In this document: one piece after another, positions 6,285 to 30,623 of the stretch
How positions within the stretch are numbered: position 1 is the first letter of the stretch
Layout: each line of letters begins with the position of its first letter
From: a virus
DNA length: 42,216 nt
Virus record (IMG/VR): IMGVR_UViG_3300045988_121331
Location: 1-42,216 of that record
Strand: one strand, 5' to 3'
Notes under the pieces: model-generated
What the model was told of the DNA's origin: nothing
Databases searched by the model: none
The model's input: only the letters and a program-made list of their open reading frames with translations
Made by a program: the position numbers and the translations under genes

Positions 6285-6704
6285 TTAATATTCAATGAAC
6301 GCTAACCGCACTTTATCCATAAGCACCTCACCATTGCGAATAAGCAAGGGTGTAAATGTTATGTCGGGCATATAAAACTCCCCTTGCTCATATGTGTGTG
6401 TATCAAAACAATAGTGGATAATTTTCAGCTTTCGTTCCTTTGCGTTTATAATACCACTATTTAAGATATTTTGCAAGGACAATAGCTCTCTTTCAAATAA
6501 GGGCGGTGTATTCCATTCCAGTTTTGACCTTGTGTGGGCTAAAGTGTTGCGGTGCAGTTTGCCTAAATTATCTTGATAACTATCAAGGTCTTGCCGTTGG
6601 TTCGGAGTGGAAACATAGCTTGTTAAAGATATATACTTATTCGGTATAGGTATAGCCGTGTTATCACTCGCCCTTATTACTTTTACAAAATATGTGTCAA
6701 ACAT
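6285..6704 (-). CDS. distal tail protein-like (small Dit)
   Basis: 139 aa immediately downstream of the tape measure, with an AGGAGTGG RBS. The call is based on position only. Confidence 0.45.
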   Translation of the reverse strand: MFDTYFVKVIRASDNTAIPIPNKYISLTSYVSTPNQRQDLDSYQDNLGKLHRNTLAHTRSKLEWNTPPLFERELLSLQNILNSGIINAKERKLKIIHYCFDTHTYEQGEFYMPDITFTPLLIRNGEVLMDKVRLAFIEY

Positions 6705-6721
6705 ATGCTTCCACTCCTAAA

Positions 6722-12675: not shown

Positions 12676-13194
12676 TTATTTATCGTATTTTTCGTGTAGG
12701 GCTTCTACCAATGAAGCAGGCTCTACATCAAGTTTGCCATTGCCTGCGGCGGGCGGATTGACATTATTTTTAATATCCTGCGCCGCTGATTTCTTAGAGG
12801 CACTTTCCACTCTGTCGGACATAACCTTTGCAAAAGCGGACGGTGACTGTTCATTTTCCATAAGGTATTTAATTTCCTCGCTGGAAAAGCCGTTGTCAAC
12901 AAGCTGTTCTTTAGCTTTGAGAGCGGCAAGTTCTTTTTCCATTGCTTGCACTCTTGCTATCTCAGCCGCAGAGGTTTCAGCCTGTTTTTCTTCCTCTGTC
13001 TGCTTTGAAGCTTTATAATCGCTATATTCTTTTTTGATAGATTTAAGCGAATTTTCGGCTTCTGTCAGTCTGCCTTTAGCGACATAATCGCCTTTTGATA
13101 GGTCGGCTAACTTCATTTTGGATATGATTTCACCGATTTCTTCGGCAGTCATACCCTCTTTGTAGGCTTCGCCTAATAGTTCTTGTAGTGTCAT
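12676..13194 (-). CDS. scaffolding protein
   Basis: Helical, Glu/Lys/Ala-rich. The preferred ATG at 13194 (MTLQELL) follows GGAAAGAGGA. The track ORF extends to 13266 with no RBS. Confidence 0.7.
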   Translation of the reverse strand: MTLQELLGEAYKEGMTAEEIGEIISKMKLADLSKGDYVAKGRLTEAENSLKSIKKEYSDYKASKQTEEEKQAETSAAEIARVQAMEKELAALKAKEQLVDNGFSSEEIKYLMENEQSPSAFAKVMSDRVESASKKSAAQDIKNNVNPPAAGNGKLDVEPASLVEALHEKYDK

Positions 13195-15180: not shown

Positions 15181-18100
15181 TTAATTTGCTCGTCTGCGAT
15201 TAAGAATTGTGATAGAATTTTGCCGTTTTTTGAAAGATAAATATTTTTGAGCATACATTGCTATCACATCTATACTATCATCATAGGCATTGTGCGCCGT
15301 ATATGAAAACGAGGTAAGGTATTTCATAAACTTGCCAAATTCTGAACCTTGCGCATACATCCCAAATTCCGGGAATACAATGCACGATTTAATAGTCGCC
15401 TCATTATCATATATTTTATCTTCTTTATGCTTATAGCTATATACTTCTGTAATATTACAATAATCTATACCTCTTTCGTAAAGCATACCACGCAATAGTG
15501 TGGCAAGGCTTGTATCGGTGTTGCGCTCTATATGCAATCGCGTAATGTGGTGCTGCTCTATTTTACGAATTATAGTAGGATATATCTTTTCCATAGGTTT
15601 CATTTCAAATATACAGTCTTTAAGATAATGTTTATCACCTATAGGAAGACAAATAGCCATTGCTATATAGTTTGCACCGGTACGCGCAGGGTCAAGCATA
15701 GCCCAACAACTTTCCTCGTCTTTTTCTTCTTCAATATGTGGTATAGCCTTATATGTTAATAGATTATCATAGCTAAAAGCACAGCCCTCAATAGGCATAG
15801 GCTCTTGCATATCCATAGCCATAAAAGTATTATAGTCGGCAAGTCTGTCAGCCCGAGCTTCCTCTGTGGTGTATTTATGTGGATATGTGCTTTCGTCAGT
15901 GTCCCAATCAAGTTTAGGAACGGATACGAAAACCGCCTTATGCCGAGCATTAAACTTTGTGTATTTATTGATTTTACTCTGTTTAGCCGTATCGCCGCCA
16001 TATTTGCGCTTTATGGTAGACAGAAAGTCATAAATATGGTAGGTAGTGCCACTGAAAACCTCAAAACTGTTATTATCATCATATTTTCGCTTTTTCCACT
16101 GGTCTTGATACCGCTCTATATCTTTTTCGTGCATATTGATATTGCCCTTGTCTTTTGACCGTGTAATATCATCGTAAAAGCGGTATTTATATCGTCCGCC
16201 GTCTACAGGGGTGTCTTTATTTGCTAATAGGAACGATGTGCCTTTAATACTTCCGTGGATAAGCAAGCGCGCCACTTGATTATTGCCGCCCTCACGCCGA
16301 ACATCAAATATTTTGTCCTTATCACCCTCAAATTGAGCATAATAAGGAAATACTTTGGCATAATTAGGCTTGCACATATATTTTACCAATTTTGCGGACA
16401 TATCGGTTATCAATGAGGGGTTTCCAACTATTTTTAATACATCTGCGTTTATATCTATGCCAAATATATAGGATATTAGAACAGTATCGGCATAGCTATT
16501 ATGTGATACTATGCCATTTGCAATAAAATTGTGCGTTTCTTCAACTTCAATATCAACCATATCAGTTAAATCTTCGTCAAATTCTATGCTTTTTATCTTT
16601 TGCCACACAAAGTCATTTGAGACAACATCTTTAAGCAAACCTGTTTTTTCTGAAAATTCGTCAATCCATTGTTTTTTAAAGGATAAAGTTTTCGCCCAAG
16701 ATTTATTTTTTATTTTCTTCAACTCTTTGCAATGGCAAACAACGCTTTTAGGATAGTTTACATTGTTTGAATATGGCGACACACTCTTTGAAAACAACCG
16801 TTCAACTCTGATTTTCAGATTTTCTTGCTTGTAATAACAATAACAGTTTTTGTATAATTTGTTTATGAACTCATCGGGTATTGTAAGATTGTAACAATCA
16901 AATGTTTTGCCATCACACTTGCTTTTTCTATGGCAATAATAAGAGTATATGCCACAAGTGCCTAAAAGTCTTTGTATGTCTTGTATAAGCCCCTCGTTAG
17001 CAAGTGATATTCCACAAGGGCTTTTACCTTTATTTATCCAACCGTCAGTAGCAAACATTATGCCGATAAATTTATATCTTTGTTTTAAACTCATTTCAAA
17101 AAACTGTTTAGGCAGTCTTTTAGTATAAGACAAATGATTTATAACGCCATAACGGATAAGAACATCTGCTACTTTGCCATTTGCACTGTGTATTCTCACT
17201 TCGTACGCTTTTGATGGGTGATAAACACTATATGTTACGCCCCATTTATTAAGCACCGAAATAAATCTATCCAAAATTTCGTTATTTTCTTTGATAAATC
17301 TAAATCTTGCCTGTTTGCAATGCCCATCAAAAATCATACAAGTGACAAAAAACAGTTCGTCTTCGTCAATTTCATAACCATAATTCAATGGCGAGCAGAT
17401 TTCAAGAAGATAATCGCTAACGGTTATATCTTTGCACATTTTATAACCTTTGTCGGTGTACAATCTATGCTCAGGACTGCAAATTATCTCTTTGCCATTA
17501 TTAAGCCTAATTTTGATTTGTTTTTTTTCTGTATTCCATTTATTCGTTATTCGCCTTATTACAGGTTTGTTTTCTTTCATAGAATACACAAAATCGCCAA
17601 TATTAACATTTTTAATAGGTTTATAACCCTGTGTAGTTAAAATAGGCGTATCAGCTTTTAGGCACTTTCCATACCCGACTGGGCATTGTTTTTCAAGGTA
17701 TTTCACAGTGCCGTCAAGCACCATTTTGTCGGCATAATACCAAAATCCCTTAAAACAATTAAGGTTATATTTCCATACCTTATCATTTTCAGGCATACCC
17801 CACTCCATATAAAGCGCAAAGTGTTCTATGTTGCGGAAAGCCGACAAAGCATAAAAATTCTCATACAATTTGCCGTATTCGGTATAATTTTCTTGCAATT
17901 TCAGCAACCGAGCCTTGTTTTCCTCGGTAAATTTCTCTTTTTTGAGTTTATCAGCCAAAACAGCCATTTTTTTCAGTTTATCACGCAATGTAGGCAAAAC
18001 AAATTTGCAGACATACTCAATATGCTTGCGGATTTCATCCTCGCCCTCGTTATCACGCAACTGTGCCAAATAACCGTGTATCTGCGAGTGCATAGTGCGA

Positions 18101-18216
18101 TATAAATTATCGCTGACAGCTAAAACATACTCGTCACTGTCTAAATACTTTGCATTTTTGCGCATTTCGCTAAACGCAACACAGCCTTCACGAACAATCT
18201 CACCGATATTATCCAT
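15181..18216 (-). CDS. terL: terminase large subunit, interrupted in-frame by an intein
   Basis: The exteins carry a split Walker A (CPVGYGK|S), RFYDDI, and nuclease motifs (AMLDPARTGANY, AYDDSIDV). GGAGG RBS. The 1011-aa precursor would give a 622-aa mature protein. Confidence 0.9.
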   Translation of the reverse strand: MDNIGEIVREGCVAFSEMRKNAKYLDSDEYVLAVSDNLYRTMHSQIHGYLAQLRDNEGEDEIRKHIEYVCKFVLPTLRDKLKKMAVLADKLKKEKFTEENKARLLKLQENYTEYGKLYENFYALSAFRNIEHFALYMEWGMPENDKVWKYNLNCFKGFWYYADKMVLDGTVKYLEKQCPVGYGKCLKADTPILTTQGYKPIKNVNIGDFVYSMKENKPVIRRITNKWNTEKKQIKIRLNNGKEIICSPEHRLYTDKGYKMCKDITVSDYLLEICSPLNYGYEIDEDELFFVTCMIFDGHCKQARFRFIKENNEILDRFISVLNKWGVTYSVYHPSKAYEVRIHSANGKVADVLIRYGVINHLSYTKRLPKQFFEMSLKQRYKFIGIMFATDGWINKGKSPCGISLANEGLIQDIQRLLGTCGIYSYYCHRKSKCDGKTFDCYNLTIPDEFINKLYKNCYCYYKQENLKIRVERLFSKSVSPYSNNVNYPKSVVCHCKELKKIKNKSWAKTLSFKKQWIDEFSEKTGLLKDVVSNDFVWQKIKSIEFDEDLTDMVDIEVEETHNFIANGIVSHNSYADTVLISYIFGIDINADVLKIVGNPSLITDMSAKLVKYMCKPNYAKVFPYYAQFEGDKDKIFDVRREGGNNQVARLLIHGSIKGTSFLLANKDTPVDGGRYKYRFYDDITRSKDKGNINMHEKDIERYQDQWKKRKYDDNNSFEVFSGTTYHIYDFLSTIKRKYGGDTAKQSKINKYTKFNARHKAVFVSVPKLDWDTDESTYPHKYTTEEARADRLADYNTFMAMDMQEPMPIEGCAFSYDNLLTYKAIPHIEEEKDEESCWAMLDPARTGANYIAMAICLPIGDKHYLKDCIFEMKPMEKIYPTIIRKIEQHHITRLHIERNTDTSLATLLRGMLYERGIDYCNITEVYSYKHKEDKIYDNEATIKSCIVFPEFGMYAQGSEFGKFMKYLTSFSYTAHNAYDDSIDVIAMYAQKYLSFKKRQNSITILNRRRAN
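16498..17664 (-). mobile_element. intein (389 aa) with LAGLIDADG homing-endonuclease domain, inserted in the terL P-loop
   Basis: It begins at Cys185 (CLKADTPILT) and has block B (SPEH). Two LAGLIDADG-like motifs are present (LFFVTCMIFDG, KFIGIMFATDG). It ends THNFIANGIVSHN followed by Ser (+1). Confidence 0.85.
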
Positions 18217-18275
18217 TCATAGCACCTCCGCCAGTTTTTATTATTATAGCAAATAAGCCAAACAATTTCAAGTGT

Positions 18276-18322
18276 ATAAAAAGCGACCACCCAGCAGAGA
18301 GGTGTACAACTGCCAAGCGGTC
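18276..18322 (-). terminator. intrinsic terminator in the terL leader
   Basis: The minus-strand RNA forms a 13-bp stem (GACCGCUUGGCAG/CUGCUGGGUGGUC, four G:U pairs) followed by GCUUUUUAU. The G:U pairs make it strand-specific. Confidence 0.6.
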
Positions 18323-18381
18323 AAAGAAAGGAGATAATGAAAACGTCTAAACAAAACTTAAATATCAGAGTTTTCAAATAC

Positions 18382-18410
18382 AATATACCACATATTTTCT
18401 CATTTGTCAA
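18382..18410 (-). promoter_or_regulatory. promoter TTGACA-17-TATATT (TGg extended -10), proximal to the terL leader
   Basis: The minus strand reads TTGACAaatgagaaaatatgtggTATATT. Confidence 0.6.
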
Positions 18411-18478
18411 TAGCAAAAAAGCAACAGCCATAATAGCCATTGCCTTTCCGCTATATCCAAAATTATTACTGTATAGCC

Positions 18479-18507
18479 ATTATATCATATCCACTACTCT
18501 TTGTCAA
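18479..18507 (-). promoter_or_regulatory. promoter TTGACA-17-TATAAT (TGa extended -10), distal to the terL leader
   Basis: The minus strand reads TTGACAaagagtagtggatatgaTATAAT. It overlaps the stop of ORF 18494-18781. Confidence 0.6.
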
Positions 18508-18781
18508 GCTCTAATAAAAACGCAACATTGCAAGCAATATGATACAAGTGCGGCAGTCCGCTATCCTCATCAACCCCGTGCGGCTCTTTCAGCCATTTGC
18601 ATATGTGGCGCATTAAAGCCGCCCTATATCGTTTAGGGTCAACATTCTTATAACTGCCCTCGCCATATTTTTCAGCGCCGTGTGTCATAACAATGCCAAC
18701 AGCCTCTATTATCTCAGCAGGCACTAAATCTAACCTCGGCTTGCCTCCGTCGTGCTTTAACCCATCTGTTACAACATCCAT
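18494..18781 (-). CDS. MazG-like all-alpha NTP pyrophosphohydrolase-like protein (resembles the DUF5664 / dATP-dGTP diphosphohydrolase N-terminal family)
   Basis: 95 aa with KHDGGKPRLDLVP, GAEKYGEGSY and DEDSGLPHLYHIACNVAFLLE. The pattern is recalled from memory and not searched. GAGAGGTGGA RBS. Confidence 0.5.
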   Translation of the reverse strand: MDVVTDGLKHDGGKPRLDLVPAEIIEAVGIVMTHGAEKYGEGSYKNVDPKRYRAALMRHICKWLKEPHGVDEDSGLPHLYHIACNVAFLLELDKE

Positions 18782-18825
18782 TATAATTCCACCTCTCTTA
18801 AATATCAGCCATAAGCCATACCGCC

Positions 18826-18855
18826 ATTATAGCACCCCGCCCCCGCGCTTGTCAA
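18826..18855 (-). promoter_or_regulatory. promoter TTGACA-18-TATAAT (TGc extended -10)
   Basis: The minus strand reads TTGACAagcgcgggggcggggtgcTATAAT, upstream of ORF 18494-18781. Confidence 0.6.
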
Positions 18856-18936
18856 CCTTTGCATAAATTCTGCATTTTTATTCATTTTCTACGCATAAAC
18901 CAGTAAAAAAACAACTTTGTGAATTTTTAAAATTTT

Positions 18937-19006
18937 GGGGGGTAACCCGACCTCCGGCTGCCCGGTCCGGGATAGGGTTCGGGGTGGGTTTTGCCCCGGG
19001 AACGCC
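18937..19006. other. GC-rich island (about 70 bp) in AT-rich non-coding DNA
   Basis: Sequence is GGGGGGTAACCCGACCTCCGGCTGCCCGGTCCGGGATAGGGTTCGGGGTGGGTTTTGCCCCGGGAACGCC. It contains the palindrome CCCGG-T-CCGGG and no ORF. Confidence 0.6.
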
Positions 19007-19073
19007 TACAAATAAAGCGTTTTCACGTTACAAATACGAACGATTAAGAAACAAAAACATATTTTTAACACGA

Positions 19074-19105
19074 TTTAGCACTTTAGCGCTTTAGCACTTT
19101 AGCAT
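19074..19105. repeat. four tandem 8-bp repeats TTTAGC(A/G)(C/T)
   Basis: Reads tttagcac tttagcgc tttagcac tttagcat head-to-tail, 65 bp from the GC island. Confidence 0.8.
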
Positions 19106-19388
19106 AATGAAGGTGACAGCCTTACTTTTCTATTTAATTATCATTACATTTTAATTATATATATGTATATGCCTATAATATAAGTATGTGCAGTGTATGA
19201 GTATATTATAATATAGTCTTGTGCTTATATGTATAGGCTTATACAGACAATAACGATATAATAACACGGTGCAGGGCTTAAGGCTACTACAGAACACGCA
19301 AGGGCGTATATAATATTGGTGGTATACTCTGCATATTATGAATAAATAGGCATATTAAAATATTTTATTTTAAAATTAAAAATTTTAC

Positions 19389-19417
19389 TTGACAAATATA
19401 TTTATATTTGATATAAT
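19389..19417 (+). promoter_or_regulatory. promoter TTGACA-17-TATAAT (TGa extended -10) for the plus-strand operon
   Basis: Reads TTGACAaatatatttatatttgaTATAAT, preceded by phased A/T tracts. Confidence 0.75.
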
Positions 19418-19449
19418 AAAGACAACGAAAGGAAAGGAGAAAAAACAAG

Positions 19450-19566
19450 ATGAAAACAGAAGATATTAAAAAGCTGCTGCATTTGGTTATTGAACTTTTG
19501 AAACGGTGTAAAACCGTCGACGAAGCTATAAAAGCAATATGCAACGCTTACGACATCCACGAATAA
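19450..19566 (+). CDS. 38-aa leader ORF
   Basis: Encodes MKTEDIKKLLHLVIELLKRCKTVDEAIKAICNAYDIHE, with a GGAAAGGAG RBS. It is followed by two GC-rich hairpins. Confidence 0.35.
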   Translation: MKTEDIKKLLHLVIELLKRCKTVDEAIKAICNAYDIHE

Positions 19567-19640
19567 CAAACGCCGAGCCGGGCGGCATAACCCGGCAGCC
19601 TTCGGGCTTGTTGATAAAATAATTAAAAGAGGCTTTCAAA

Positions 19641-19874
19641 ATGGAAAGATACACACAAAAACAATTAAAAAATCTTGTAAACACTGGCGCGGCTGTTGAT
19701 ATTACCCGCGGAAACAACGAAACCCGCGAACAAATAATTAATGAAGAAGGATATTATACCCAAATAGGATATAGCGCGGGCGTTTATGGTTGTAATGGTA
19801 TGTTGTTAAAAGGTCATAAAACGGGCAAATTATACGCAGTTACAAGCAACACAAGCGCAATATATATATTTTAA
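19641..19874 (+). CDS. hypothetical protein (77 aa)
   Basis: AAGAGG RBS. Conserved-looking C-terminus (GYSAGVYGCNGMLLKGHKTGKLYAVTSNTSAIYIF). No family identified. Confidence 0.55.
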   Translation: MERYTQKQLKNLVNTGAAVDITRGNNETREQIINEEGYYTQIGYSAGVYGCNGMLLKGHKTGKLYAVTSNTSAIYIF

Positions 19875-19976
19875 TTAGCAGAGTGGCGGCGGCTTTGGCT
19901 GCCGTTAATGCGGCAGGGCATACGGTCACAAGCCCCGAAAGCCCGAAAGCATATATTTTATGTTGAGGTGTAAAAA

Positions 19977-20369
19977 ATGAAAACAAACAATAAAAAAGCA
20001 CGCGAGAACATACGCAAATATATTATTGCAAACTTTACCCCGGAGGGCTACACGGACAACCCGCCGCAAGAGTTCCCCAAAATAGCCCGCTTTATTCTTT
20101 CCACTTTCAGAAATGAAAAATACAACACCCCGGAAGACTTCCGCTATTATAGGAATAACGAGCTTGCAGCTTTCGCGGCTTGGTGCGCGGGGCTTTGCGG
20201 TGTTCTTGATACTTGTTATTTTTATAACCGTTCCGCCGTTGATGACCTCGGCACAATTCTTGAAGAAACAGAGGAAGAAAAAACGCGTTATACAGAAGAA
20301 CAAGCCGAAAACACATTAACATTTTTAATTTATCGCGAGTTAATAAAAGGGGCTGCGGATAATGTATAA
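19977..20369 (+). CDS. hypothetical protein (130 aa)
   Basis: GAGGTG RBS. Overlaps the FtsK-like gene by 8 nt, suggesting translational coupling. Confidence 0.6.
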   Translation: MKTNNKKARENIRKYIIANFTPEGYTDNPPQEFPKIARFILSTFRNEKYNTPEDFRYYRNNELAAFAAWCAGLCGVLDTCYFYNRSAVDDLGTILEETEEEKTRYTEEQAENTLTFLIYRELIKGAADNV

Positions 20370-21354
20370 CGGCGAACAATTAGCGCAGGCGCTGACCGTT
20401 TTCGGTCTGCCCTGCGTTTTTAAAGAAACGAAACAAACCCCACGCAACACCATATATTATTTTGATTTTACCGACTGGGGCAAAGTCACAGCGGGCAGGC
20501 GTAAAGCAGCGCTTGACCGCCTTTCACTATATGCCAAACATCAATTTAATTATATTGATAGTAATATATCACATTTCGCAATATATCACGCTGAAAACAA
20601 TTATAATATTGTCCCGCTTTTCGGGCTTGCCTTGCCTGCTGATGATACTTATAAATTCATAGCGGGCATAAACGAGGACGGCGAACAAGTCAACATTTCA
20701 TTAGATGAAATGACACACGCACTTATTGCAGGTACTACCGGCAGCGGTAAAAGCGTATTTTTAAAAAGCCTTTTATATTCTTTATTAACTACCAATAGCC
20801 CGAATAAGATAAAATGTGCTATTATAGATAAAAAGCGCAGTTTAAATTATTGGAGCAGGGCGGCGCACTGTCTCAGAGTGGCAAACGATGATATTTCGGC
20901 AATAGCTTTATTAAATACTTTTCAAAAAGAAATGTATAACCGATATGAAGAATTACAGCGCCGAGGGCTTGAAAAAAATATCGGGCTGTTTCCTAAGTGG
21001 GTATTGATAATTGATGAGCTGGCGGATTTAATGCTAACTGACCGCAAAACAGAAATTGAAAACAAGCTTGTTTCGCTTTGTCAGCTCGGGCGCGCTGCCG
21101 GTATTCATTGTGTGCTGTGCACCCAGTCGCCCCGCGTTGCTGTTGTCAGTGGTTTAATTCAGGCGAACACCCCGACAAAGATTATATTTAAAACAGCGAA
21201 CACGCGGGAAAGTGTATTGTGTTTAGGTCATTCGGGAGCGGAAAAGCTGCTCGGAAATGGTGACTGCCTTATAAAATTGCCCGACAGAGTAAAAGATATT
21301 AGAGTACAAGCGCCGTTTGCAAGTGATGAAGACTTTAGAAACTGTATAGAATAG
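20362..21354 (+). CDS. FtsK/SpoIIIE-family DNA-translocase-like ATPase (alpha+beta domains, no gamma domain)
   Basis: Walker A (GTTGSGKSVFLKSLL), Walker B (WVLIIDELADL) and the arginine-finger region (CTQSPRVAVVSG). No membrane anchor and no C-terminal winged helix. Confidence 0.85.
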   Translation: MYNGEQLAQALTVFGLPCVFKETKQTPRNTIYYFDFTDWGKVTAGRRKAALDRLSLYAKHQFNYIDSNISHFAIYHAENNYNIVPLFGLALPADDTYKFIAGINEDGEQVNISLDEMTHALIAGTTGSGKSVFLKSLLYSLLTTNSPNKIKCAIIDKKRSLNYWSRAAHCLRVANDDISAIALLNTFQKEMYNRYEELQRRGLEKNIGLFPKWVLIIDELADLMLTDRKTEIENKLVSLCQLGRAAGIHCVLCTQSPRVAVVSGLIQANTPTKIIFKTANTRESVLCLGHSGAEKLLGNGDCLIKLPDRVKDIRVQAPFASDEDFRNCIE

Positions 21355-21365
21355 AGGTATAAAAA

Positions 21366-21482
21366 ATGATTTTTAGTGTTTTAGCTTATATTTTAATAGT
21401 CGGTATTGGCTGTATATTCTTTGAGTGTACGAAAACAGGGCAGAAAATAGCCGATAAAATCTATAAGAAAATAATAAAATAA
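21366..21482 (+). CDS. 38-aa single-TM peptide
   Basis: Encodes MIFSVLAYILIVGIGCIFFE..., with an AGAGGT RBS 7 nt upstream. It is the last ORF before the terminator. Confidence 0.35.
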   Translation: MIFSVLAYILIVGIGCIFFECTKTGQKIADKIYKKIIK

Positions 21483-21490
21483 TGCTTTTG

Positions 21491-21520
21491 ACCGTCCGCA
21501 GCTTGTGGGCGGTTCTTTTT
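21491..21520 (+). terminator. intrinsic terminator of the plus-strand operon
   Basis: Stem accgtcc/gggcggt (7 bp including one G:U) followed by TCTTTTT. Confidence 0.55.
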
Positions 21521-21644
21521 ATGCCTGTTTAAAACTATGCTCTAAAATGCCCTGTATTGCGTTTTAATGTTTACTTTAGTATTTATATTCCGAAATAATA
21601 AAAAAGCTGTACAGCCCCAAAAGAAACGATATTTTTAATATTCT

Positions 21645-21689
21645 AAAGCAAAAAGAAACTGCCGAAAGTGTTTTTAAACTCTCGACAGT
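21645..21689 (-). terminator. intrinsic terminator after the island minus-strand operon
   Basis: 12-bp stem (ACUGUCGAGAGU/ACUUUCGGCAGU, two G:U pairs) starting 5 nt after the stop at 21695, followed by UUCUUUU. Confidence 0.6.
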
Positions 21690-21694
21690 CTTTT

Positions 21695-22165
21695 TTATTG
21701 TTCCGATGTGGCTTGTAGTTCGGCTTGCAACCGCTCAAATACTGCTTGCCGGCTGATATGGTGTCTTCTTGCTATTTCCGATATATCGCCCCATATCGCT
21801 TTACCCTCTCTACGCATAAGAGCGGCTTTCTTTATTTCCTCGCATAGTTCCGCTTTCGGCGGTCGTGTTTTAATATTACAATAGGCATTTAAAGTATATC
21901 TCACATTATATCGGGATATATTTAATTTATGGGCTATCATATCCACATTATGCAGTCCACTTTCCCACAAGGCTTTTATTTGCTCCTTGTTGGCTGTGCC
22001 GTCATCGCTTACCGCTCTGCCTCGCCTTATTGTTCCGCCGTTTGCCTTTATTGTATTGACAACATAATATCGTGATAGCCCTACAATATCGGCGGTTCTT
22101 GCCACTGTATAGCCCTTATAATGGCATATCATAATATCGTCTATTTGGCTTTGCTTTAATTTCAT
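21695..22165 (-). CDS. DNA-binding protein with three tandem HTH units
   Basis: Three repeats of the pattern xIxxxxxxGxxxxxIAxxLxISRxxV (resolvase / sigma region-4-like). ATGA overlap with the upstream gene. Confidence 0.6.
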   Translation of the reverse strand: MKLKQSQIDDIMICHYKGYTVARTADIVGLSRYYVVNTIKANGGTIRRGRAVSDDGTANKEQIKALWESGLHNVDMIAHKLNISRYNVRYTLNAYCNIKTRPPKAELCEEIKKAALMRREGKAIWGDISEIARRHHISRQAVFERLQAELQATSEQ

Positions 22166-22404
22166 TCGGTCATTACTCCCGTTGGGTCTTCAAGCCAGTA
22201 AACGCCTATAACCGTATTTCGCCCATATCGGGTTTTAACTACTTCATCACGGCGTTTTATTATATATCCCTTGTTGCGTAAATGGTATATAATTCCGCTT
22301 AACCTTGTCGCGCCGTAGAGTTCTATTGCCTGCATTGAGGTTAATTCTCTGCCTGATAATAAATGCTCTAATATGGCTTTTGTTTGCGTGTTGTCGTGTA
22401 TCAT
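22162..22404 (-). CDS. winged-helix DNA-binding protein (HTH_39-like)
   Basis: 80 aa with ILEHLLSGRELTSMQAIELYGATRLSGIIYHLRNKGYII, the pattern of small wHTH proteins. Confidence 0.6.
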   Translation of the reverse strand: MIHDNTQTKAILEHLLSGRELTSMQAIELYGATRLSGIIYHLRNKGYIIKRRDEVVKTRYGRNTVIGVYWLEDPTGVMTE

Positions 22405-22418
22405 AATTTTACTCCTTT

Positions 22419-23114
22419 TTATAAAATTTTTAATTGTTGCATTTGATTTTGAAGCCTATCATTAGCTAATTTATAATAATGCTTGCTTAATTCAAAACCA
22501 ACAAATTCAAAGCCTTCGTCATAACACGCTACAAGGCTTGAAGCGCTCCCGGCGTGTGTATCTAAAATCTTATCGCCTTGTTGAGCATATTTACCTAACA
22601 ACCACTTATAAAGCGCCACTGGCTTTTGTGTGGGGTGTATGCGTATTTCTTTATTTCTCATATCTTCTTGTAACATACCGTTCCATTTAAACCTAAAAAT
22701 TCTTACTGCAGTTTTGAAAGAAGTCCATGCAAGTTCACAGTCAGCAAAATCAGTATCGCCATTGCGTTTATCCCACACTATCCAGCAATGGCTATCAATG
22801 GGGATACGACTAATAAAATGATTAGCCCCCCATATAATTTGATTTTTAGAAACTCTCATAAGTTCGTCAAAATATTCTTTTTCGGGGGGGTTAATATCAT
22901 CACCGGCAAAACTTTCATAACTTTTAGCATAACATTTGGCGTTGCTTTTACTTTGCAAAAATCCTATCCTTTTTCCTCGAGATTTCGCTTTGTCCCCATT
23001 TTCACCTATGCCATACGGCGGGTCAACAATAGCTAAATCAAAATATTTATCGGGGAATTGTTTCATTCCGTCCATACAATCCATATTGTAGAGTTTGTTA
23101 AGCTCTAACATCAT
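22419..23114 (-). CDS. DNA methyltransferase, N6-adenine/N4-cytosine beta class (DPPY)
   Basis: Motif IV (IVDPPYGIG) lies N-terminal to motif I (ILDTHAGSASSLVAC). ATGA overlap with the recombinase stop. Confidence 0.85.
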   Translation of the reverse strand: MMLELNKLYNMDCMDGMKQFPDKYFDLAIVDPPYGIGENGDKAKSRGKRIGFLQSKSNAKCYAKSYESFAGDDINPPEKEYFDELMRVSKNQIIWGANHFISRIPIDSHCWIVWDKRNGDTDFADCELAWTSFKTAVRIFRFKWNGMLQEDMRNKEIRIHPTQKPVALYKWLLGKYAQQGDKILDTHAGSASSLVACYDEGFEFVGFELSKHYYKLANDRLQNQMQQLKIL

Positions 23115-23710
23115 TCTACCCCCTTTAATATTCTGCTTACCGTAGCTATGCTTATATTTAATATATCGGCTATGTCTCTATAACTCTTATGCTCGGATTT
23201 TAAGTCAAACACTTGTTGCCGAATTTCGTCTGATATTGTTTTCGGTCTGCCGAGTGTAACACCCTGCTGTTTTTTTCTTTGCAACGCGTTGGATGTATTA
23301 TAACCTATTTGTCTTTTCAAAAATTCGTCTTGTATAAAGAATTGAGATATAGTCATCCAAGTATACGGGTTCATTTTTTCCCCGCCCTCTAATGTTATAC
23401 CATTGCTCAAAAACTTTACGGTGGCTTTTTTCTGTTGCGTTATTAAATCAAGCATTTCAAAGCAATCGATATAATTTCTGCCAAAGCGTGATGTTTCAGT
23501 AAGGCAAACAATGTCTGTTGGTTCGAGACATTCAAGCATTTTGTTAAACTGTTCACGCTGATTACCTTTAACGCCACCGCTGATATGTTCCTCAAAAATC
23601 ATATCAAACTCATATCCGCTATTTTCAAGCAAATACATCTGTCGCTCATAATCTTGTTTCGCTGATTTTTCGGTTGTAGATACTCTACAATAAGCTATTA
23701 CTTTGCACAT
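23111..23710 (-). CDS. small serine recombinase (resolvase/invertase type)
   Basis: 199 aa with the N-terminal catalytic motif (AYCRVSTTEKS), SRFGRN, and a C-terminal HTH (SYRDIADILNISIATVSRIL). Confidence 0.9.
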   Translation of the reverse strand: MCKVIAYCRVSTTEKSAKQDYERQMYLLENSGYEFDMIFEEHISGGVKGNQREQFNKMLECLEPTDIVCLTETSRFGRNYIDCFEMLDLITQQKKATVKFLSNGITLEGGEKMNPYTWMTISQFFIQDEFLKRQIGYNTSNALQRKKQQGVTLGRPKTISDEIRQQVFDLKSEHKSYRDIADILNISIATVSRILKGVE

Positions 23711-23776
23711 TCTTATTTTCCTTTCTTACGGTATAAATAAAAGCCTATAATATATTACTTTTCTAACCGCAATTAT

Positions 23777-23805
23777 ATTATAAGCCTTTATGTAACATTT
23801 GTCAA
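23777..23805 (-). promoter_or_regulatory. promoter TTGACA-17-TATAAT for the recombinase operon
   Basis: The minus strand reads TTGACAaatgttacataaaggctTATAAT. Confidence 0.7.
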
Positions 23806-23821
23806 GCAAAATGTTTAATCT

Positions 23822-23992
23822 TTAAATAATTATTTCCAATAGGAAATAGGCAAAGGCAAAATCAACCATTGCTTGCGATAGAAAAAATGCCGTAATATAA
23901 GCGGGTGCTTTGGTTTTAACGCCCATTACAGATAATGCCAAACCCATAATGCCTATTGTTATTCCGAATATAGCTAATATTGTTTTAAGCAT
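23822..23992 (-). CDS. 56-aa two-TM membrane protein
   Basis: The ATG lies 1 nt after the terS stop. Encodes MLKTILAIFGITIGIMGLALSV... Below the ORF-track size cutoff. Confidence 0.4.
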   Translation of the reverse strand: MLKTILAIFGITIGIMGLALSVMGVKTKAPAYITAFFLSQAMVDFAFAYFLLEIII

Positions 23993-23993
23993 T

Positions 23994-24635
23994 TTATTCC
24001 CCTTTCTTGTCTAACAGAGCTTTCATATTTGCCAATTCTTTCAATTCATATCGGAATTGCCCCTCGTTTAATGCGTCACTTGCCTTATCGAGTATACTTT
24101 CCGCGTCACCTATTTGTACCAATTCGTGACCGTAGCCGCCCTTGCTCTTTAGCCGCAGTTTGCTTGTTGACTCTTTCTGTTGACCTTGTTCGGCTGCCGA
24201 AAGAGTGAAGTTTATTAAATCAGCTTCAATATCACCGCATACTTGTTTGACATTATCGGTCGCATTGTTGCGTAAATGCTCAAACGCTGATACACTTATC
24301 CTTGCAAATGCCAAAAATTCAAGTTTATTCGGCGTATATGATATAGCCATATTTACATATGCCATAAGTGATAGATAAGCATTATAGATATTATAAATAT
24401 CGTCTGCCGACAGTTTAAGGGCAATATCATTTGTGACCGTGCGTTCCTGTCGGAGTATTTCACCAAGTTTTACTCTTACACGGTATTCAAGAGTATCAGC
24501 TAAATACTTTTCGCCTTGCCTTGATTTATTCACAATATCCGAACGGCATATCTCAATAAATTCTTCAAGCTGTGACTTTATTGTTTCAACTTTAGCTTGA
24601 TATTTTGTTAATATTTCATTATCCATATTATTCAC
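23994..24635 (-). CDS. putative terminase small subunit
   Basis: The segment YTPNKLEFLAFARISVSAFEHL plus the C-terminal KLRLKSKGGYG resembles small-terminase patterns. It follows an ArpU-like gene. No search was done. Confidence 0.45.
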   Translation of the reverse strand: MNNMDNEILTKYQAKVETIKSQLEEFIEICRSDIVNKSRQGEKYLADTLEYRVRVKLGEILRQERTVTNDIALKLSADDIYNIYNAYLSLMAYVNMAISYTPNKLEFLAFARISVSAFEHLRNNATDNVKQVCGDIEADLINFTLSAAEQGQQKESTSKLRLKSKGGYGHELVQIGDAESILDKASDALNEGQFRYELKELANMKALLDKKGE

Positions 24636-25092
24636 CTACTAACTGCACATACTGTCCATAGCTTAAATAAGTGCCGTGCAATTTATTATATTCCGCTCGT
24701 TCTTTTTCTATCATTTGCAAAGACTTAAAAGCCTTACCTTTAGCTTTCTTTGCGCGCGTAGGACGTGCAGATTTATATAATTCCAATTGTGCGAGGTCGC
24801 GCCTTTTCCGCGCGTCCTCTTTGCATATCGGGCATTTACGGTTATTGTTGTTAGTATAAAATTCCCTGCCGCAATCGTTACACGGTTTATGCTTTATATT
24901 ATCCTCTATTAACTTATTTATAACTGCTATATCACTTACTACTATTACGGCGCTATATCCTAAACTGTCGCATATTTCGTTTATTGACATATCCTTTGCA
25001 TAATAAAGCCGTGTAATGGTTCTTTGCCGTGCGCTCTTTACTAAGTCTAATAGCCGTGATATCCCGCTATCGTCTATAATTGCCTTTTCCAT
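24628..25092 (-). CDS. sigma region-4/ArpU-like HTH plus zinc-ribbon protein (candidate late-gene regulator)
   Basis: Contains RLYYAKDMSINEICDSLGYS (HTH) and CNDC...CPIC. It occupies the position immediately upstream of terS, as RinA/ArpU-type activators do. Confidence 0.5.
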   Translation of the reverse strand: MEKAIIDDSGISRLLDLVKSARQRTITRLYYAKDMSINEICDSLGYSAVIVVSDIAVINKLIEDNIKHKPCNDCGREFYTNNNNRKCPICKEDARKRRDLAQLELYKSARPTRAKKAKGKAFKSLQMIEKERAEYNKLHGTYLSYGQYVQLVGE

Positions 25093-25397
25093 TATTTTAA
25101 TAACACCTCCACATCAATTCCGCTTTCTTTAAGTTTTTGTTCGCATAACCACCAAGTGCAATCCTCGCCCATTTCGTATTTGTCTTCAAGGTCAATCTGC
25201 ATTTTCTTTAGCTTATCAGCGAATTTTTCTAACCGTTCCTGCCCGAAACCATAATCAAAACGGAGAATGTATAATATCTGTGCCGCAACTTGATGATTAT
25301 AACGGCTCAACAATTCGTTAAATTCTTTTACACATTCAGCCCTTAATGCTTTTCTCTGTGCGCTTGTGGGATATTCTTTATTTAACCTTACTTTCAT
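25092..25397 (-). CDS. hypothetical protein
   Basis: 101-aa ORF, tightly packed in the operon. Confidence 0.5.
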   Translation of the reverse strand: MKVRLNKEYPTSAQRKALRAECVKEFNELLSRYNHQVAAQILYILRFDYGFGQERLEKFADKLKKMQIDLEDKYEMGEDCTWWLCEQKLKESGIDVEVLLK

Positions 25398-25665
25398 TTT
25401 CCCTTAACCCTTTCCAATCAATCTTTTTACCGCAATATGGGCAATAGTCGAAACGCTGTAAATTTGTGCTTTTTCTCTTGTTAAAATAATCATATATCGG
25501 CTTCGGCGGCAAAATGCCTATGTCCGTATATTTTTTTGAATATTCATACAAAGATTTTTCTCGTTCGATTTTTTCTATCACTTCATACGCTGTTACTATT
25601 TCTGTATTTTCATAATCATTCCATATTCCTATCACACATTCGTGCATTGCTCTACCTCGCTTCAT
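25378..25665 (-). CDS. hypothetical protein with C-terminal zinc ribbon
   Basis: 95 aa with a CPYCGKK motif. ATGA overlap with the upstream small ORF. Confidence 0.5.
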   Translation of the reverse strand: MKRGRAMHECVIGIWNDYENTEIVTAYEVIEKIEREKSLYEYSKKYTDIGILPPKPIYDYFNKRKSTNLQRFDYCPYCGKKIDWKGLRENESKVK

Positions 25666-27565: not shown

Positions 27566-28261
27566 TCATACTTTTCTCTCCATTTCCGCCCGCAGGCTTT
27601 CTTTGATGTAATAATCAATGCCACGCCGTTTGCAAAGCTTCTCGGCTTTTCTCCCGAATTCTGCCCAGTTTATATCTGATTTATGATAATTCAGTTTTCC
27701 GATTTTTACCTTATCGACAATCGGTGCTGCCAAGTGCATATTGATAAAAAACTCTCTTTCGTTCGTTACAGGCTCGAAAGAAATCCAAGTTTTAATCCCT
27801 CGGCTATGCGCCTCCGCAAGAGCGCCAACTCTCGCTTTCCACAAAGGGTCTTTTCCATTCCCGATACCGTCAAGTGTAATGCCGTACCAATCGTTCTCAT
27901 CGAGCAAATCAAAATCCCTGCTCCCGTCACCTTTGGTGAGTATCTGCACATTGTTTCCACTTTCCTTAATGGCTTTGATTATCTCTCGTGTGGGTGTTGT
28001 ATCGTAGCCGGTCGGATAAGGGTCGCAGGTAAAGCAGAGATGAATAAGTTTCCCGGTTATCTCCTCTTTTTCAAGCTGTTGCTTCGTTGCTTTGACTATA
28101 TCGGTTCTCGGCTCTACATTTGTGTGAAACGCCTCACGGTCTTTATGCAGAACATTCGGTGCGAAACAGTAAAAACAGCGGTGTGGGCAACCTGTGTAGA
28201 TGTTCAGCGCATAGTCGCCATATTCTTTAGCTTTGCCTTTCGGCTCATATATTGGTTTCAT
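27566..28261 (-). CDS. radical SAM protein (SPL/COG1533-like CxxxCxxC)
   Basis: Has the GCPHRCFYCFA cluster near the N-terminus. The preferred ATG at 28261 lies 8 nt after GGGAGG. The track ORF starts at 28297. Confidence 0.75.
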   Translation of the reverse strand: MKPIYEPKGKAKEYGDYALNIYTGCPHRCFYCFAPNVLHKDREAFHTNVEPRTDIVKATKQQLEKEEITGKLIHLCFTCDPYPTGYDTTPTREIIKAIKESGNNVQILTKGDGSRDFDLLDENDWYGITLDGIGNGKDPLWKARVGALAEAHSRGIKTWISFEPVTNEREFFINMHLAAPIVDKVKIGKLNYHKSDINWAEFGRKAEKLCKRRGIDYYIKESLRAEMERKV

Positions 28262-28342
28262 ATTCAATCCCTCCCGTTGGCGCTCACTATAGCGCATATT
28301 GCAAAGCCTATCGGTGCGCCAATTATAAGTCCGATTATAAAG

Positions 28343-28468
28343 TCAATCATTTTCTTTGTACCTCTCCCAATTTTCAAATTCTACACAGTTTGCGCACGGC
28401 ATATCCGAACGGTCATTATCGTAATATGCGCAATCCTCACAACACATTGGCTCATTCAAATTGTCCAT
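28343..28468 (-). CDS. 41-aa Cys-rich peptide
   Basis: Encodes MDNLNEPMCCEDCAYYDNDRSDMPCANCVEF..., with a GAGGAG RBS. Below the track cutoff. Confidence 0.35.
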   Translation of the reverse strand: MDNLNEPMCCEDCAYYDNDRSDMPCANCVEFENWERYKEND

Positions 28469-28507
28469 AATTATTTACTCTCCTCATAAAATATGTGTTT
28501 TATAAAA

Positions 28508-29212
28508 TTAATATTTTATATTGTTACAATACTCGTCAATTCGCTCATTCGCCAAGTCACAATATTGTTTAGATAATTCGTATCCGATAAAATTCCTTTT
28601 GTGATTAATAGCCGCTATTGCAGTTGTGCCAGACCCTGCACAAGGGTCTAATACCGTATCTCCTTCATTTGTGTTGTCAAGCAACAATTCCTCAAACAAC
28701 TTTAAATTTTTTTGTGTCGGATGTATTTTTCGGCTACCGTTCGGATATTTAAAAACAGTATTTTTACAATGGGCATTAAATACTTTCGCTCCTGCCTTTT
28801 TAAACCATACTGCAAATTCAACGCCTGACAAATATATGTATTGTCCATTCATAGGACTAGGATTAGTCTTTTCCCATACGATTGGGCGAACAGTTCCCTT
28901 TTTATTTGCAAAGAATTTATAAATATCACTAAACTGCTCTCGCCCACAAAAAATACAGATAGAATTTTTCGTAACCCTATAAACCTCACATAAAAAATCT
29001 TTAATATTAAATGTTTCTGTATCTGCATCTTCTTTGTTTAAATTTCGTAATCCATTGCTTTTTCGATTTACTTCCCCGAACGGAATGTCCGTTAATGTCA
29101 TATCTATGCTATTATCGGCGAGCGACTTCATTCCTTCAAAACAATCAACATTATAAATCTTATTTTGCTCTATTAAACAACTCTCTTTTTCATACCCTTT
29201 AACTCTTTTCAT
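28508..29212 (-). CDS. DNA methyltransferase, N6/N4 beta class with variant motif IV (DIPF)
   Basis: Motif IV (LTDIPFGE) lies N-terminal to motif I (VLDPCAGSGTTAIAA). It is the first gene after promoter 29339-29367. Confidence 0.8.
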   Translation of the reverse strand: MKRVKGYEKESCLIEQNKIYNVDCFEGMKSLADNSIDMTLTDIPFGEVNRKSNGLRNLNKEDADTETFNIKDFLCEVYRVTKNSICIFCGREQFSDIYKFFANKKGTVRPIVWEKTNPSPMNGQYIYLSGVEFAVWFKKAGAKVFNAHCKNTVFKYPNGSRKIHPTQKNLKLFEELLLDNTNEGDTVLDPCAGSGTTAIAAINHKRNFIGYELSKQYCDLANERIDEYCNNIKY

Positions 29213-29338
29213 TTTTTATTCTCCTTTTTTAATAAGAACGCCCCCACAAATGATACGGCACTTGCAGGAGCGTTTATTCTATGCGGCATTACCCGGTTAT
29301 AGACTATTTAATTGTTCAGAGCCGTATCTCTGTTAATT

Positions 29339-29367
29339 ATAATAGCATATAGTAATTTATTTGTCAA
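29339..29367 (-). promoter_or_regulatory. promoter TTGACA-17-TATTAT (TGc extended -10)
   Basis: The minus strand reads TTGACAaataaattactatatgcTATTAT. It shares 27 identical bp with the early promoter region. Confidence 0.6.
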
Positions 29368-29386
29368 GAATATTTTTAAATATTTT
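29360..29386. repeat. 27-bp repeat, copy A (-35 box plus upstream A/T tracts)
   Basis: tttgtcaagaatatttttaaatatttt is identical to 38580-38606. Confidence 0.85.
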
Positions 29387-29392
29387 TTGGGG

Positions 29393-30623
29393 TTATAACA
29401 TTTCTCCAAATATTGCTTCTAATACAGCCACTACGATTGAATTGCCTGCTTGCTTATATAACTGGCTGTTTAAATTTACTTGCGCGGCTTTTTCAAAATC
29501 TTCATCGTCAAAGTCCATAAGCCTAAAGCACTCTTTTGGTGTTAGCTTGCGTATTCTAACCTGTTCCTTAACTTTCACTTCTTGATTACCCCCCCCCGCA
29601 AGTGGTAAGTGTCGGTGACAATCCGTCAGTGCTATATACTCTGCGTGATTTTTCCTGCGTTTTATCCCACTTCCCACCTTGCATTGTGCCGTATAATTTA
29701 CAATTTATCGTTTCCATTCTAACACCCCGTTTGTAGTCTGATTTCCAAATCCCTTATAATCTCTTGACATAAGTGTGTTTGCAACATCAACTGAATTTTC
29801 AATTTGTTTGCCTTGCTTCGACAATAATATCCCAACTGTGCCTATCTGTGCTTGCCCGTCCGCCTGCGCGAATTGTGTGGCTAATCTCTCTCTCTACATT
29901 AACAGATTTTAAACATTTTTCAACGTTGTTTTCAGATATATAATATTTTTCCTCAACATTGCTATCCAATAAATCTTTTAGCCGAGTTTTTAAAGGCTTT
30001 GGCTGTGGAAATTCGTAGTAATAATCTCCGAGTAAGCTCACGCAAAATGTACGGTTACGGTTTTGTGGTACGCCAAAATCTTTAGCGTTTAAATCTTTAT
30101 ACCAACTCTTGTAACCCAAACTTTCAAGCTTTTGCAGCCAACTGTTAAAGTCCGCAATGTTTTTTTCTGCGTGTACTTGCGACACATTTTCCATAAGTAA
30201 TACTTGTGGTAGTTCGTTACATTCGTCTAATAATCTTTCAACTTCCCACAATAGCCCTGACCGTGTACTGCTGTTCTTCGACATTCCCCGTTGTTTCCCG
30301 GCAATACTCAAATCGGTGCAAGGAAATGAATAAGTTAATATATAGCAATACTTATCCGTATCCGTTATACCCAAATCATCGGCAGTAATTTTCGTTACAT
30401 CACTTGTTTCAAAATTCGTGCCGTGAATTGCGTTATAGCTCTTAATTGCGTATTTATCAAACTCGCATACTCTGTAATGCTCAAACGGTACGCCGAGCCG
30501 CTCCAAAGCCTTTGCTTGCGCTCCTATTCCGGCAAACAGCTCAATCAAACGAATAGGCTTATCAATCTTAAACTTTTTAGTGCCGTCAAACATTCCTATT
30601 TGTGAACCGAACCAATCGCTCAT
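29393..30623 (-). pseudogene. DNA (cytosine-5) methyltransferase, disrupted by at least three frame changes
   Basis: Motifs I (FAGIGAQ), IV (FPCTDLS), VI (ENV) and VIII (QNRNR) lie in frame 1, which stops at 29799. TRD-like pieces alternate between two frames. Motifs IX and X (RKLTPKECFRLMDF, QAGNSI) are in ORF 29393-29677. Confidence 0.7.
29589..29597 (-). repeat. G9 homopolymer at the last frame junction of the C5-MTase
   Basis: The minus strand reads ACT TGC GGGGGGGGG TAA. A G8 tract would join TLTTCGGG to NQEVKV...RKLTPKE in frame. Confidence 0.8.

Follow-up and report, generated by a model that had tools for sequence, protein, structure and literature searches.

The 42,216 nucleotides (nt) of the viral record IMGVR_UViG_3300045988_121331 from IMG/VR, analysed here in full and referred to below as the window, carry a putative small terminase gene (terS) and a large terminase gene (terL) that are separated by ~5.8 kb of accessory genes arranged in promoter-plus-terminator units. 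The intervening region comprises a minus-strand operon led by a small serine recombinase (hereafter also the resolvase), a convergent plus-strand operon encoding an FtsK-like ATPase, a non-coding spacer and a MazZ-like gene. A preliminary description of this DNA correctly recognized the split between the two terminase genes, and the sequence features that it listed proved real and close to where it had placed them; it went on, however, to interpret the block as a single hitchhiking island moved by its own resolvase. Judging from the gene order and sequence of related phages, we consider it likely that the region is not an inserted mobile island but an accessory arm of the phage genome, conserved and non-autonomous.

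Relatives were gathered by scans with terL, with the resolvase and with a terS alignment, complemented by look-ups of contigs encoding terL or resolvase homologues, and they form a graded series originating from human-gut and other metagenomes. A nucleotide search of the phage collection returned no relatives, the terL of the window is at most 25% identical to that of any GenBank phage, and scanning IMG/VR with the terS alignment added no contigs to those found by the other scans. In five close relatives (L001 and L003-L006), the alignments cover window positions 17665-22423 and 23106-25403 at 86-93% identity and cross both proposed borders of the island without interruption. The sole gap in these alignments, 22424-23105, corresponds to a DNA methyltransferase gene that is missing from all five. 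Two further relatives, L007 and L009, display the order terS, resolvase, a multi-helix-turn-helix (multi-HTH) protein, the convergent FtsK-like operon with a twister ribozyme, ~0.9 kb of non-coding DNA and terL, and their identities to the window amount to 80 and 74% for terL, 85 and 79% for the resolvase, 71 and 67% for terS, 66 and 58% for the ATPase and 46 and 40% for the multi-HTH protein, respectively. Because these identities drop in step with the phage backbone, the region appears to have been inherited vertically. Wherever enough upstream sequence is available, relatives with a terL identity of at least 74% in fact all carry the recombinase, the multi-HTH gene and the FtsK-like operon, placed and oriented as in the window. 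A gene order shared by relatives was an outcome that the preliminary description had itself named as refuting the island, and it is largely what the comparison shows.

The distance between the two terminase genes was measured from the end of terS to the start of terL, with terS homologues located by the profile of the 213-amino-acid (aa) family described below. It amounts to 3.7 kb in L013, L014 and L037, 4.5 kb in L009, 4.9-5.2 kb in the close relatives, L012 and L038, 5.8 kb in the window, 7.9 kb in L007, 9.7 kb in L011, ~11.4 kb in L024 and ~12.8 kb in a lineage with ~44% terL identity (a composite of L020 and L046). The preliminary description had proposed to look for relatives with terS abutting terL; there is none among the 11 lineages in which both genes could be placed (terL 40-99% identical). 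Lineages devoid of the recombinase and the ATPase (L011-L013, terL 50-55% identical) carry other cargo in the gap, for example a reverse-strand LPD29 gene accompanied by an HTH gene, or a diversity-generating retroelement. The split thus appears to be an ancestral trait of the clade, and the stretch between the two genes a permanent cargo slot, the content of which, as far as the compared contigs tell, is stable over moderate distances and replaced over long ones. The retroelement, composed of bAvd and a reverse transcriptase, occupies positions 1953-3549 of L011 (55% terL identity), within the terS-terL gap.

The content of this slot turns over one gene at a time and the breaks coincide with gene boundaries, as illustrated by the insertion of the methyltransferase gene, the MazZ-like gene, the deletion of a 77-aa open reading frame (ORF) together with a ribozyme, and the swap of a recombinase allele. 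The methyltransferase gene is a one-gene cassette placed between the stop codon of the recombinase gene and the start codon of the winged-helix gene; no repeats flank the one insertion junction examined, and L007 holds an MT-A70 gene in the same slot. A MazZ-like homologue went undetected in L002 and L007-L010 and is absent at 74-81% terL identity, a distribution by which this gene appears to behave as a moron-type insert. In L003, window positions 19662-19964 are missing and with them the 77-aa ORF region and the Twister-P5 ribozyme. The same close relative carries a 51%-identical resolvase allele within flanks that are otherwise 96% identical. The notion of inserted cargo, as put forward in the preliminary description, therefore holds for the methyltransferase and the MazZ-like gene, both of which are recent gains, and for slot content that differs in the long term, but not for the block as one unit. 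Turnover of this kind probably proceeds via ordinary recombination rather than via the recombinase.

How, then, does the block fare as a mobile or plasmid-like element that hitchhiked into a position between once-adjacent terS and terL genes, mobilised by its own recombinase? It does possess its own recombinase, promoters and terminators as well as an FtsK-type ATPase as used by conjugative elements; from lineage to lineage, its recombinase gene has diverged less than the phage backbone, and the module is absent from some lineages at 50-55% terL identity. Nevertheless, we find this scenario highly improbable in the light of the constant place and orientation of the core genes and of their graded divergence, both as for vertical descent, and all the more so as no relative has an empty site and the terminase genes are split even where there is no recombinase. 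The guanine-plus-cytosine (GC) content of the region (0.380 versus 0.381 elsewhere, 53rd percentile) is not anomalous. Direct repeats at the island boundaries, another feature that the preliminary description had suggested, are not convincing, the best att-like candidate flanking the region being 23 nt long at 83% identity (19160/23732), with its 19.2-kb copy unconserved in close relatives. Protein-family scans detected neither a relaxase nor a replication gene within the block, and the terL query found no homologue in the plasmid collection.

Several observations nonetheless weigh against our preferred reading of the region as a conserved accessory arm. Distant lineages keep the resolvase at 70-75% identity while terS is only 25-28% and terL ~44% identical, and this excess conservation could reflect horizontal spread of the recombinase gene, which would be a limited form of mobility. 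The tetranucleotide distance of the region lies at the 98th percentile of 5-kb windows, yet within the observed range. A target site of the recombinase was not found, and what this enzyme, the multi-HTH protein and the ATPase do is derived from family membership only. Finally, the relatives are all metagenome assemblies, which display the majority arrangement only, such that rare inverted or excised forms would escape. The conservation of the resolvase as such suggests either that selection maintains a function of it on the DNA of phage or host, or that phages often exchange its gene.

The recombinase is predicted to be a catalytically intact small serine recombinase. Its PF00239 domain covers residues 4-151 (76 bits versus a cut-off of 23 bits) and is followed by a C-terminal HTH (residues 154-196); the catalytic Ser resides in AYCRVST, and an alignment with Tn3 resolvase, its nearest solved structure (full-length match, E 2e-10), retains the YxRVST and RxGR motifs. 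Resolvases of ~200 aa that are 69-85% identical were also seen across many metagenomic phage contigs of ~40-55 kb (L019/L020, L023-L025) with far more diverged terS and terL; the alignment with the resolvase of L019/L020 covers residues 1-171 only, implying that the C-terminal HTH is different.

By its top-ranking PHROG and NCBIfam matches, the recombinase would be named a DNA invertase and an Mpi master invertase, and a 33-nt inverted repeat (identical at 29/33 positions; 19365-19397 and 23797-23829) exactly brackets both operons. One could thus imagine that the 4.4-kb two-operon segment is invertible, with the recombinase acting on this repeat as a Hin/Gin/Mpi-type invertase. We consider this extremely unlikely, since the two repeat copies consist of the AT-rich upstream element and the -35 box of a promoter family with similar members at 29374, 38587 and 15172, for which reason the repeat was rejected as a recombination site. 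In addition, every module-carrying relative shows one and the same orientation, the Mpi score of 64 bits stays far under its 272-bit cut-off, and no other inverted repeat in the genome hints at an invertible segment. Two AGCCTATAATATA dyads, one at 19.2 kb and one at 23.75 kb, were also considered as a pair of sites for the recombinase and rejected, based on their conservation patterns. The dyad at 19170-19219 is unconserved in relatives with a 97-98% identical recombinase; the one at 23734-23794 is missing in L007 and L020, where the upstream gene abuts or overlaps the resolvase start, and it is identical in L003 beside the 51%-identical resolvase allele, from which it follows that this dyad is not specific to the resolvase of the window. 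Taken together, the compared sequences provide no evidence of the recombinase moving or flipping the region.

A different proposal would be that the recombinase and the multi-HTH protein, possibly along with the ATPase, constitute a lifestyle module, in which they would serve either as a small serine integrase in lysogeny or in multimer resolution and segregation of an episome. This would be consistent with the resolvase being the only site-specific recombinase among the scanned window ORFs of at least 90 aa, which include neither a tyrosine nor a large serine integrase, and with Tn3 resolvase being its closest solved structure. It would also agree with the pair being kept beside terS in several diverged lineages (the resolvase lies no more than ~2 kb downstream of terS in eight of them, and an analogous multi-HTH gene comes directly after it in L009, L023 and L024), and with Bacillus phage Wbeta, in which one module combines a serine integrase with an FtsK/SpoIIIE-like gene, a replication gene and HTH genes. 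We consider it unlikely, however, given that terL and terS patterns retrieved no prophage copies from 185,579 species-representative genomes, in scans that detect only close relatives, that the contigs of close relatives reach at most ~43 kb and have no host flanks, and that terL has no plasmid match. Nor were a repressor, partition genes or an att/res site identified, and L024 has the resolvase without the ATPase. We would likewise call it a long shot that the resolvase and its HTH partner perform a conserved DNA-processing step of an integrase-less gut-phage clade (for instance the resolution or preparation of replicated genomes for packaging), or that the reverse-oriented FtsK-type operon, which lies next to the putative packaging site, enters the cell first and handles phage DNA at that stage or in hosts that sporulate. 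If either were true, site-specific recombination or a double-stranded DNA translocase would be linked to virion DNA maturation, a connection with no described precedent in tailed phages. Returning to the accessory arm, its recombinase and multi-HTH partner probably act on phage DNA, e.g. in multimer resolution or regulation, rather than in moving an island.

With regard to terS, we regard it as very likely that the 213-aa protein is the small terminase, of a remote gp3 type, because it has a profile link via an intermediate homologue, its structural model matches models labelled as terS, and it is co-inherited with terL. An exhaustive profile search delineated its family at no fewer than 150 clusters at 50% identity, with proteins of 190-250 aa. 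The only recurrent families among 101 homologues were PF16677 (DNA-packaging protein gp3; 4/101) and phrog_606 (terS; 8/101). One homologue, P0271, matches phrog_606 over its residues 79-174 (E 1.3e-7), and hhalign aligned the family of the window protein (A1) with P0271 at a probability of 96.5% (E 9e-10) over window residues 72-191, a span equivalent to the conserved core YTPNKLEF...RLKSK. The AlphaFold2 model, with a mean predicted local distance difference test (pLDDT) score of 71, is all-helical and most confident at residues 70-150, and a Foldseek search of BFVD placed models labelled as terS or DNA packaging at ranks 2-4, 6, 8 and 11 (best E 7.7e-5, TM score 0.39), while the PDB contained no match to the model with E < 0.5. 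The size, the helical architecture and the HTH-like core fit as well. A homologue of the 213-aa protein accompanies this terL family in every lineage with sufficient upstream sequence, one each, which is true of no other gene of the region. There is no alternative terS beside terL either, where only promoters and the MazZ-like gene lie upstream and a non-conserved 99-aa zinc-ribbon ORF downstream.

As the preliminary description had allowed for, this call could be wrong and packaging recognition could be achieved otherwise, for example through the N-terminal extension of TerL or through the multi-HTH protein, or the phage could do without a terS altogether. Speaking against the assignment, the window protein has no direct match in Pfam, PHROGs, NCBIfam, PADLOC or the PDB, consensus queries of its family give no terS profile match, and the hhalign comparison of the family with Sf6 gp1 was negative; besides, the gene never adjoins terL, and TerL has an unusual helical N-terminal extension of ~165 aa. 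Considering that the recurrent matches of the homologues are to small terminases only, and that the hhalign link spans the conserved core, we judge a wrong call to be unlikely and retain the 213-aa protein as the putative TerS.

In the resulting picture of a conserved accessory arm, the putative remote gp3-type terS closes a long early/middle block and terL opens the structural block behind a conserved non-coding spacer, in a clade of uncultured ~40-kb gut siphoviruses whose terS-terL stretch always holds cargo. Both operons are probably transcribed by the unmodified host RNA polymerase as early accessory functions, because they share their consensus sigma-70 promoter type with other promoters of the phage; four of the only six perfect TTGACA-N16-18-TATAAT promoters in the 42-kb window sit within 18.4-23.8 kb. 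They likely serve to protect DNA from restriction by modifying it, to control the nucleotide pool and to handle DNA. From the consensus TTGACA/TATAAT promoters, strong Shine-Dalgarno sites, the amidase and the twister ribozyme we infer a Firmicutes host. As for the packaging site, it would probably be situated either within terS or in the conserved spacer that precedes terL. A GC-rich box within this spacer precedes terL by 165-738 nt in the window, L001, L002, L004-L007 and L009, and it is shared by all relatives with a terL identity of at least 74%; its position suggests a candidate DNA site for packaging or (late) regulation. As a structured RNA the box was rejected, for it has no Rfam match and no conserved fold on the terL-sense strand, the sole strand tested. 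Elsewhere in the spacer, the 8-mer tandem repeats are replaced by ATAAAGTG x3 in L005/L006, and none are present in L001/L004.

The coordinates of all features are compiled in the table, in which some details of the preliminary description had to be adjusted. The span 19389-21520, given there to the FtsK-like ATPase, is that of the operon, the ATPase gene itself being confined to 20362-21354. The terminator of the recombinase operon, formerly at 21645-21689, is present and placed at 21691-21656. The non-coding DNA does contain the 8-mer repeats and the GC island, and is shorter than the ~600 bp once estimated. The MazG-like gene does have a promoter of its own, which is a perfect one, and the gene product matches PF18909, the N-terminal domain of dATP/dGTP diphosphohydrolase. 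The gene labelled ArpU-like (24628-25092) exists as well, and its product has only weak matches to sigma-70 region-4/YlxM-like families with E values around 1e-3 (UPF0122 E 6.5e-4, DUF1492 E 5.7e-3, phrog_36 E 1.3e-3).

Table. Features of the terS-terL region and its surroundings (window coordinates; TM, transmembrane; NTP, nucleoside triphosphate)
Feature	Position	Strand	Remarks
High-coordinate block past the region	 	 	DnaB, O/DnaD-like initiator, SSB, RecT, exonuclease, several methyltransferases (replication/recombination)
154-aa protein	24628..25092	-	directly upstream of terS; weak sigma-70 region-4/YlxM-like HTH and Cys-rich zinc-ribbon
Putative terS, 213 aa, remote gp3-type	23994..24635	-	end of long minus-strand early/middle block, followed only by the 56-aa peptide
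56-aa two-TM peptide	23822..23992	-	start codon 2 nt past the terS stop
Sigma-70 promoter of recombinase operon, perfect 12/12	23777..23805	-	AT-rich upstream element common to other promoters of the phage
Dyad AAGCCTATAATATA-N19-TATATTATAAGCCT	23734..23794	 	overlaps -10 box; candidate operator
Small serine recombinase, 199 aa, resolvase/invertase type	23111..23710	-	PF00239 E 3e-21, phrog_125 E 1e-40
Orphan N6/N4 (DPPY) DNA methyltransferase, 231 aa	22419..23114	-	PF01555; phrog_23224 E 1.5e-51
Winged-helix protein HTH_39, 80 aa	22162..22404	-	PF14090 E 2.4e-14; present in close relatives only
Multi-HTH protein, 156 aa	21695..22165	-	three resolvase-type (HTH_7-like) HTH repeats; conserved partner of the recombinase
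Intrinsic terminator of recombinase operon	21656..21691	-	 
Intrinsic terminator of plus-strand operon	21490..21514	+	 
37-aa hydrophobic (TM) peptide, last gene of operon	21368..21481	+	79-100% identical in close relatives
FtsK/SpoIIIE/HerA-type P-loop ATPase, 330 aa	20362..21354	+	PF01580 E 1e-29, phrog_1358 E 2e-56
130-aa protein, phrog_11100	19977..20369	+	overlaps ATPase start
Twister-P5 ribozyme RF02684	19877..19938	+	gap between 77-aa and 130-aa ORFs
77-aa ORF	19641..19874	+	 
38-aa first ORF	19451..19567	+	followed by GC-rich hairpin 19570-19606
Sigma-70 promoter of FtsK-like operon, perfect 12/12	19389..19417	+	promoter family including 23805, 29374, 38587, 15172
Non-coding spacer, ~533 bp	18856-19388	 	 
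Hypervariable AT-rich spacer part	19050..19220	 	includes 8-mer tandem repeats TTTAGCRC 19071-19102
Conserved GC-rich box	18935..19005	 	ends in GGGGGGTAA = GATTACCCCYCC on terL-sense strand
Promoter of MazZ-like gene, perfect 12/12	18855-18826	-	 
MazZ/MazG-like NTP pyrophosphohydrolase N-domain gene, 95 aa	18494..18781	-	PF18909 E 4.5e-26, phrog_801 E 3.5e-31
Three consensus/near-consensus promoters upstream of terL	18507-18479, 18410-18382, 18271-18243	-	kept in close relatives
terL, 1011 aa	15181..18216	-	spliced 622 aa; T7-type RNaseH-like nuclease domain
Low-coordinate block	 	 	amidase endolysin and tail genes, then major head protein, SPP1-type portal, terL 15181-18216

The product of the FtsK-like gene scores 104 bits with PF01580 (cut-off 24 bits), contains the Walker A motif GTTGSGKS and the Walker B motif LIIDE, has neither a transmembrane segment nor a gamma domain, and matches the motor domain of P. 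aeruginosa FtsK (E 6e-34); its PHROG families are filed as 'moron, auxiliary metabolic gene and host takeover'. The ~44%-terL lineage has a homologue on the reverse strand upstream of terL; L024 and L011-L013 lack the gene. In view of L024, a strict coupling between the resolvase and FtsK-like genes was rejected. The ATPase was likewise rejected as part of a defence system, in that the PADLOC matches to SspH, mad8 and HerA reflect the shared ATPase domain and partner genes are missing. The Twister-P5 ribozyme of the same operon, for which self-cleavage is predicted, was recognized by the Rfam covariance model with 51.8 bits (gathering score 37.6) over model positions 1-58 of 58, and copies reside in the same operon of six related loci (L001, L004-L007 and L009). 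This ribozyme and the terL intein had both escaped the preliminary description.

The intein comprises 389 aa with a LAGLIDADG homing-endonuclease domain (about 16498-17664) and interrupts the P-loop of TerL (GYGK|C...HN|S). It is polymorphic in relatives, in which TerL has no intein (622 aa), a mini-intein (750-796 aa) or a full one (1006-1011 aa). The N-terminal extension of TerL (residues 1-165 of the spliced protein, ~165 aa and helical) precedes the Walker A motif, and its length is kept across the terL family, whose members, inteins not counted, have about 612-634 aa. In L023, a C5 DNA methyltransferase gene (5264-7276) also contains an intein (PF14890), which represents a second intein target in this phage group, and in L013 (50% terL identity) the interval from terL to the portal gene holds a skipping-rope RNA and a tRNA (12786-12999).

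As to the genome at large, almost all genes lie on the minus strand. The window ends overlap exactly over 119 nt (1-119 versus 42098-42216), which indicates a circularly closed assembly and a complete genome of ~42.1 kb; by its length, this overlap looks more like a k-mer artefact of the assembler than like a terminal repeat of biological origin. At least three DNA methyltransferases are encoded by the phage. The early region 27566-30623 contains a radical-SAM protein, an N6/N4 methyltransferase (28508-29212) and a C5 methyltransferase (29799-30623). Next to terS, the 154-aa protein is 100% identical in L003, 48-49% in L001, L004 and L005 and 29% in L007, and the 56-aa two-TM peptide is 96-98% identical in L001 and L003-L005 and was undetected in L007 and L009.

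Collectively, a recombinase together with promoter-plus-terminator units between terS and terL mimics an inserted element, whereas comparison with relatives argues for the normal architecture of a large clade of uncultured gut phages. Literature searches turned up no account of such an arrangement. Pipelines that seek terS only beside terL would miss it in these phages; the 213-aa family, to which none of the searched sources gives an annotation, may now be marked as a candidate small terminase. The region further supplies test cases of a very conserved small serine recombinase in phages without a detected integrase, of a twister ribozyme within a phage operon and of a polymorphic terL intein.

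Among known small terminases, the 213-aa protein most readily compares with those of the P22 gp3/Sf6 gp1 type (PF16677, phrog_606), with which it shares the core link via intermediates, the terS-labelled models, the size, the all-helical nature and the co-occurrence with terL. It differs from them in its failure to match their profiles directly or Sf6 gp1 by hhalign, in a helical N-terminal extension of ~70 aa, and in the location of its gene, which lies 3.7-12.8 kb from terL and not immediately upstream of it.

The recombinase resembles Tn3/gamma-delta resolvase and Hin, Gin, Cin and Mpi in its Ser/Arg motifs, in its C-terminal HTH and in the full-length match to Tn3 resolvase, and the dyad over its own promoter is reminiscent of res autoregulation. 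Unlike in those systems, no res site and no segment that could invert was identified, a transposase is missing, the dyad does not change along with the recombinase allele, no integrated or plasmid form of the phage was found, and the recombinase is paired with a protein of three resolvase-type HTHs.

FtsK/SpoIIIE-like genes are common in Bacillus and Mycobacterium phages. The ATPase of the window belongs to the same family as those of Wbeta (wp22) and of the cluster J mycobacteriophages (phrog_1358/3551), and it likewise has small membrane and other ORFs alongside; in Wbeta, too, the gene is near a replication gene, HTH genes and a serine recombinase. The latter was rejected as a precedent for a small recombinase, being a large serine integrase of 481 aa. 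In contrast to these phage genes, the ATPase of the window is short (330 aa), shares its operon with a twister, is transcribed against the direction of the genome and lies close upstream of terL, and it has no replication-initiator gene next to it.

Bacterial twisters have been described in intergenic positions near phage genes, with their function unresolved (PMC6765202). The copy in the window, like other bacterial and phage-associated members of RF02684, is full-length, scores above threshold and is intergenic in a polycistronic operon near phage genes; there is nothing unusual about it, and it represents a new example.

The closest parallel to the region as a whole is provided by the moron or accessory regions of tailed phages such as lambda and HK97, in which self-contained promoter-gene-terminator units occupy variable slots. 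The units of the window likewise have their own consensus promoters and terminators, with one operon opposite to the genome, single genes are present or absent between close relatives, and the cargo includes orphan methyltransferases and an NTP pyrophosphohydrolase. Unlike in those regions, the recombinase, the multi-HTH gene and the FtsK-like operon are not sporadic but stably inherited down to 74% terL identity, and the slot sits between terS and terL, two genes that are normally adjacent. The finding is thus a new example of a moron or accessory region, the position of which is unusual yet common to the whole clade.

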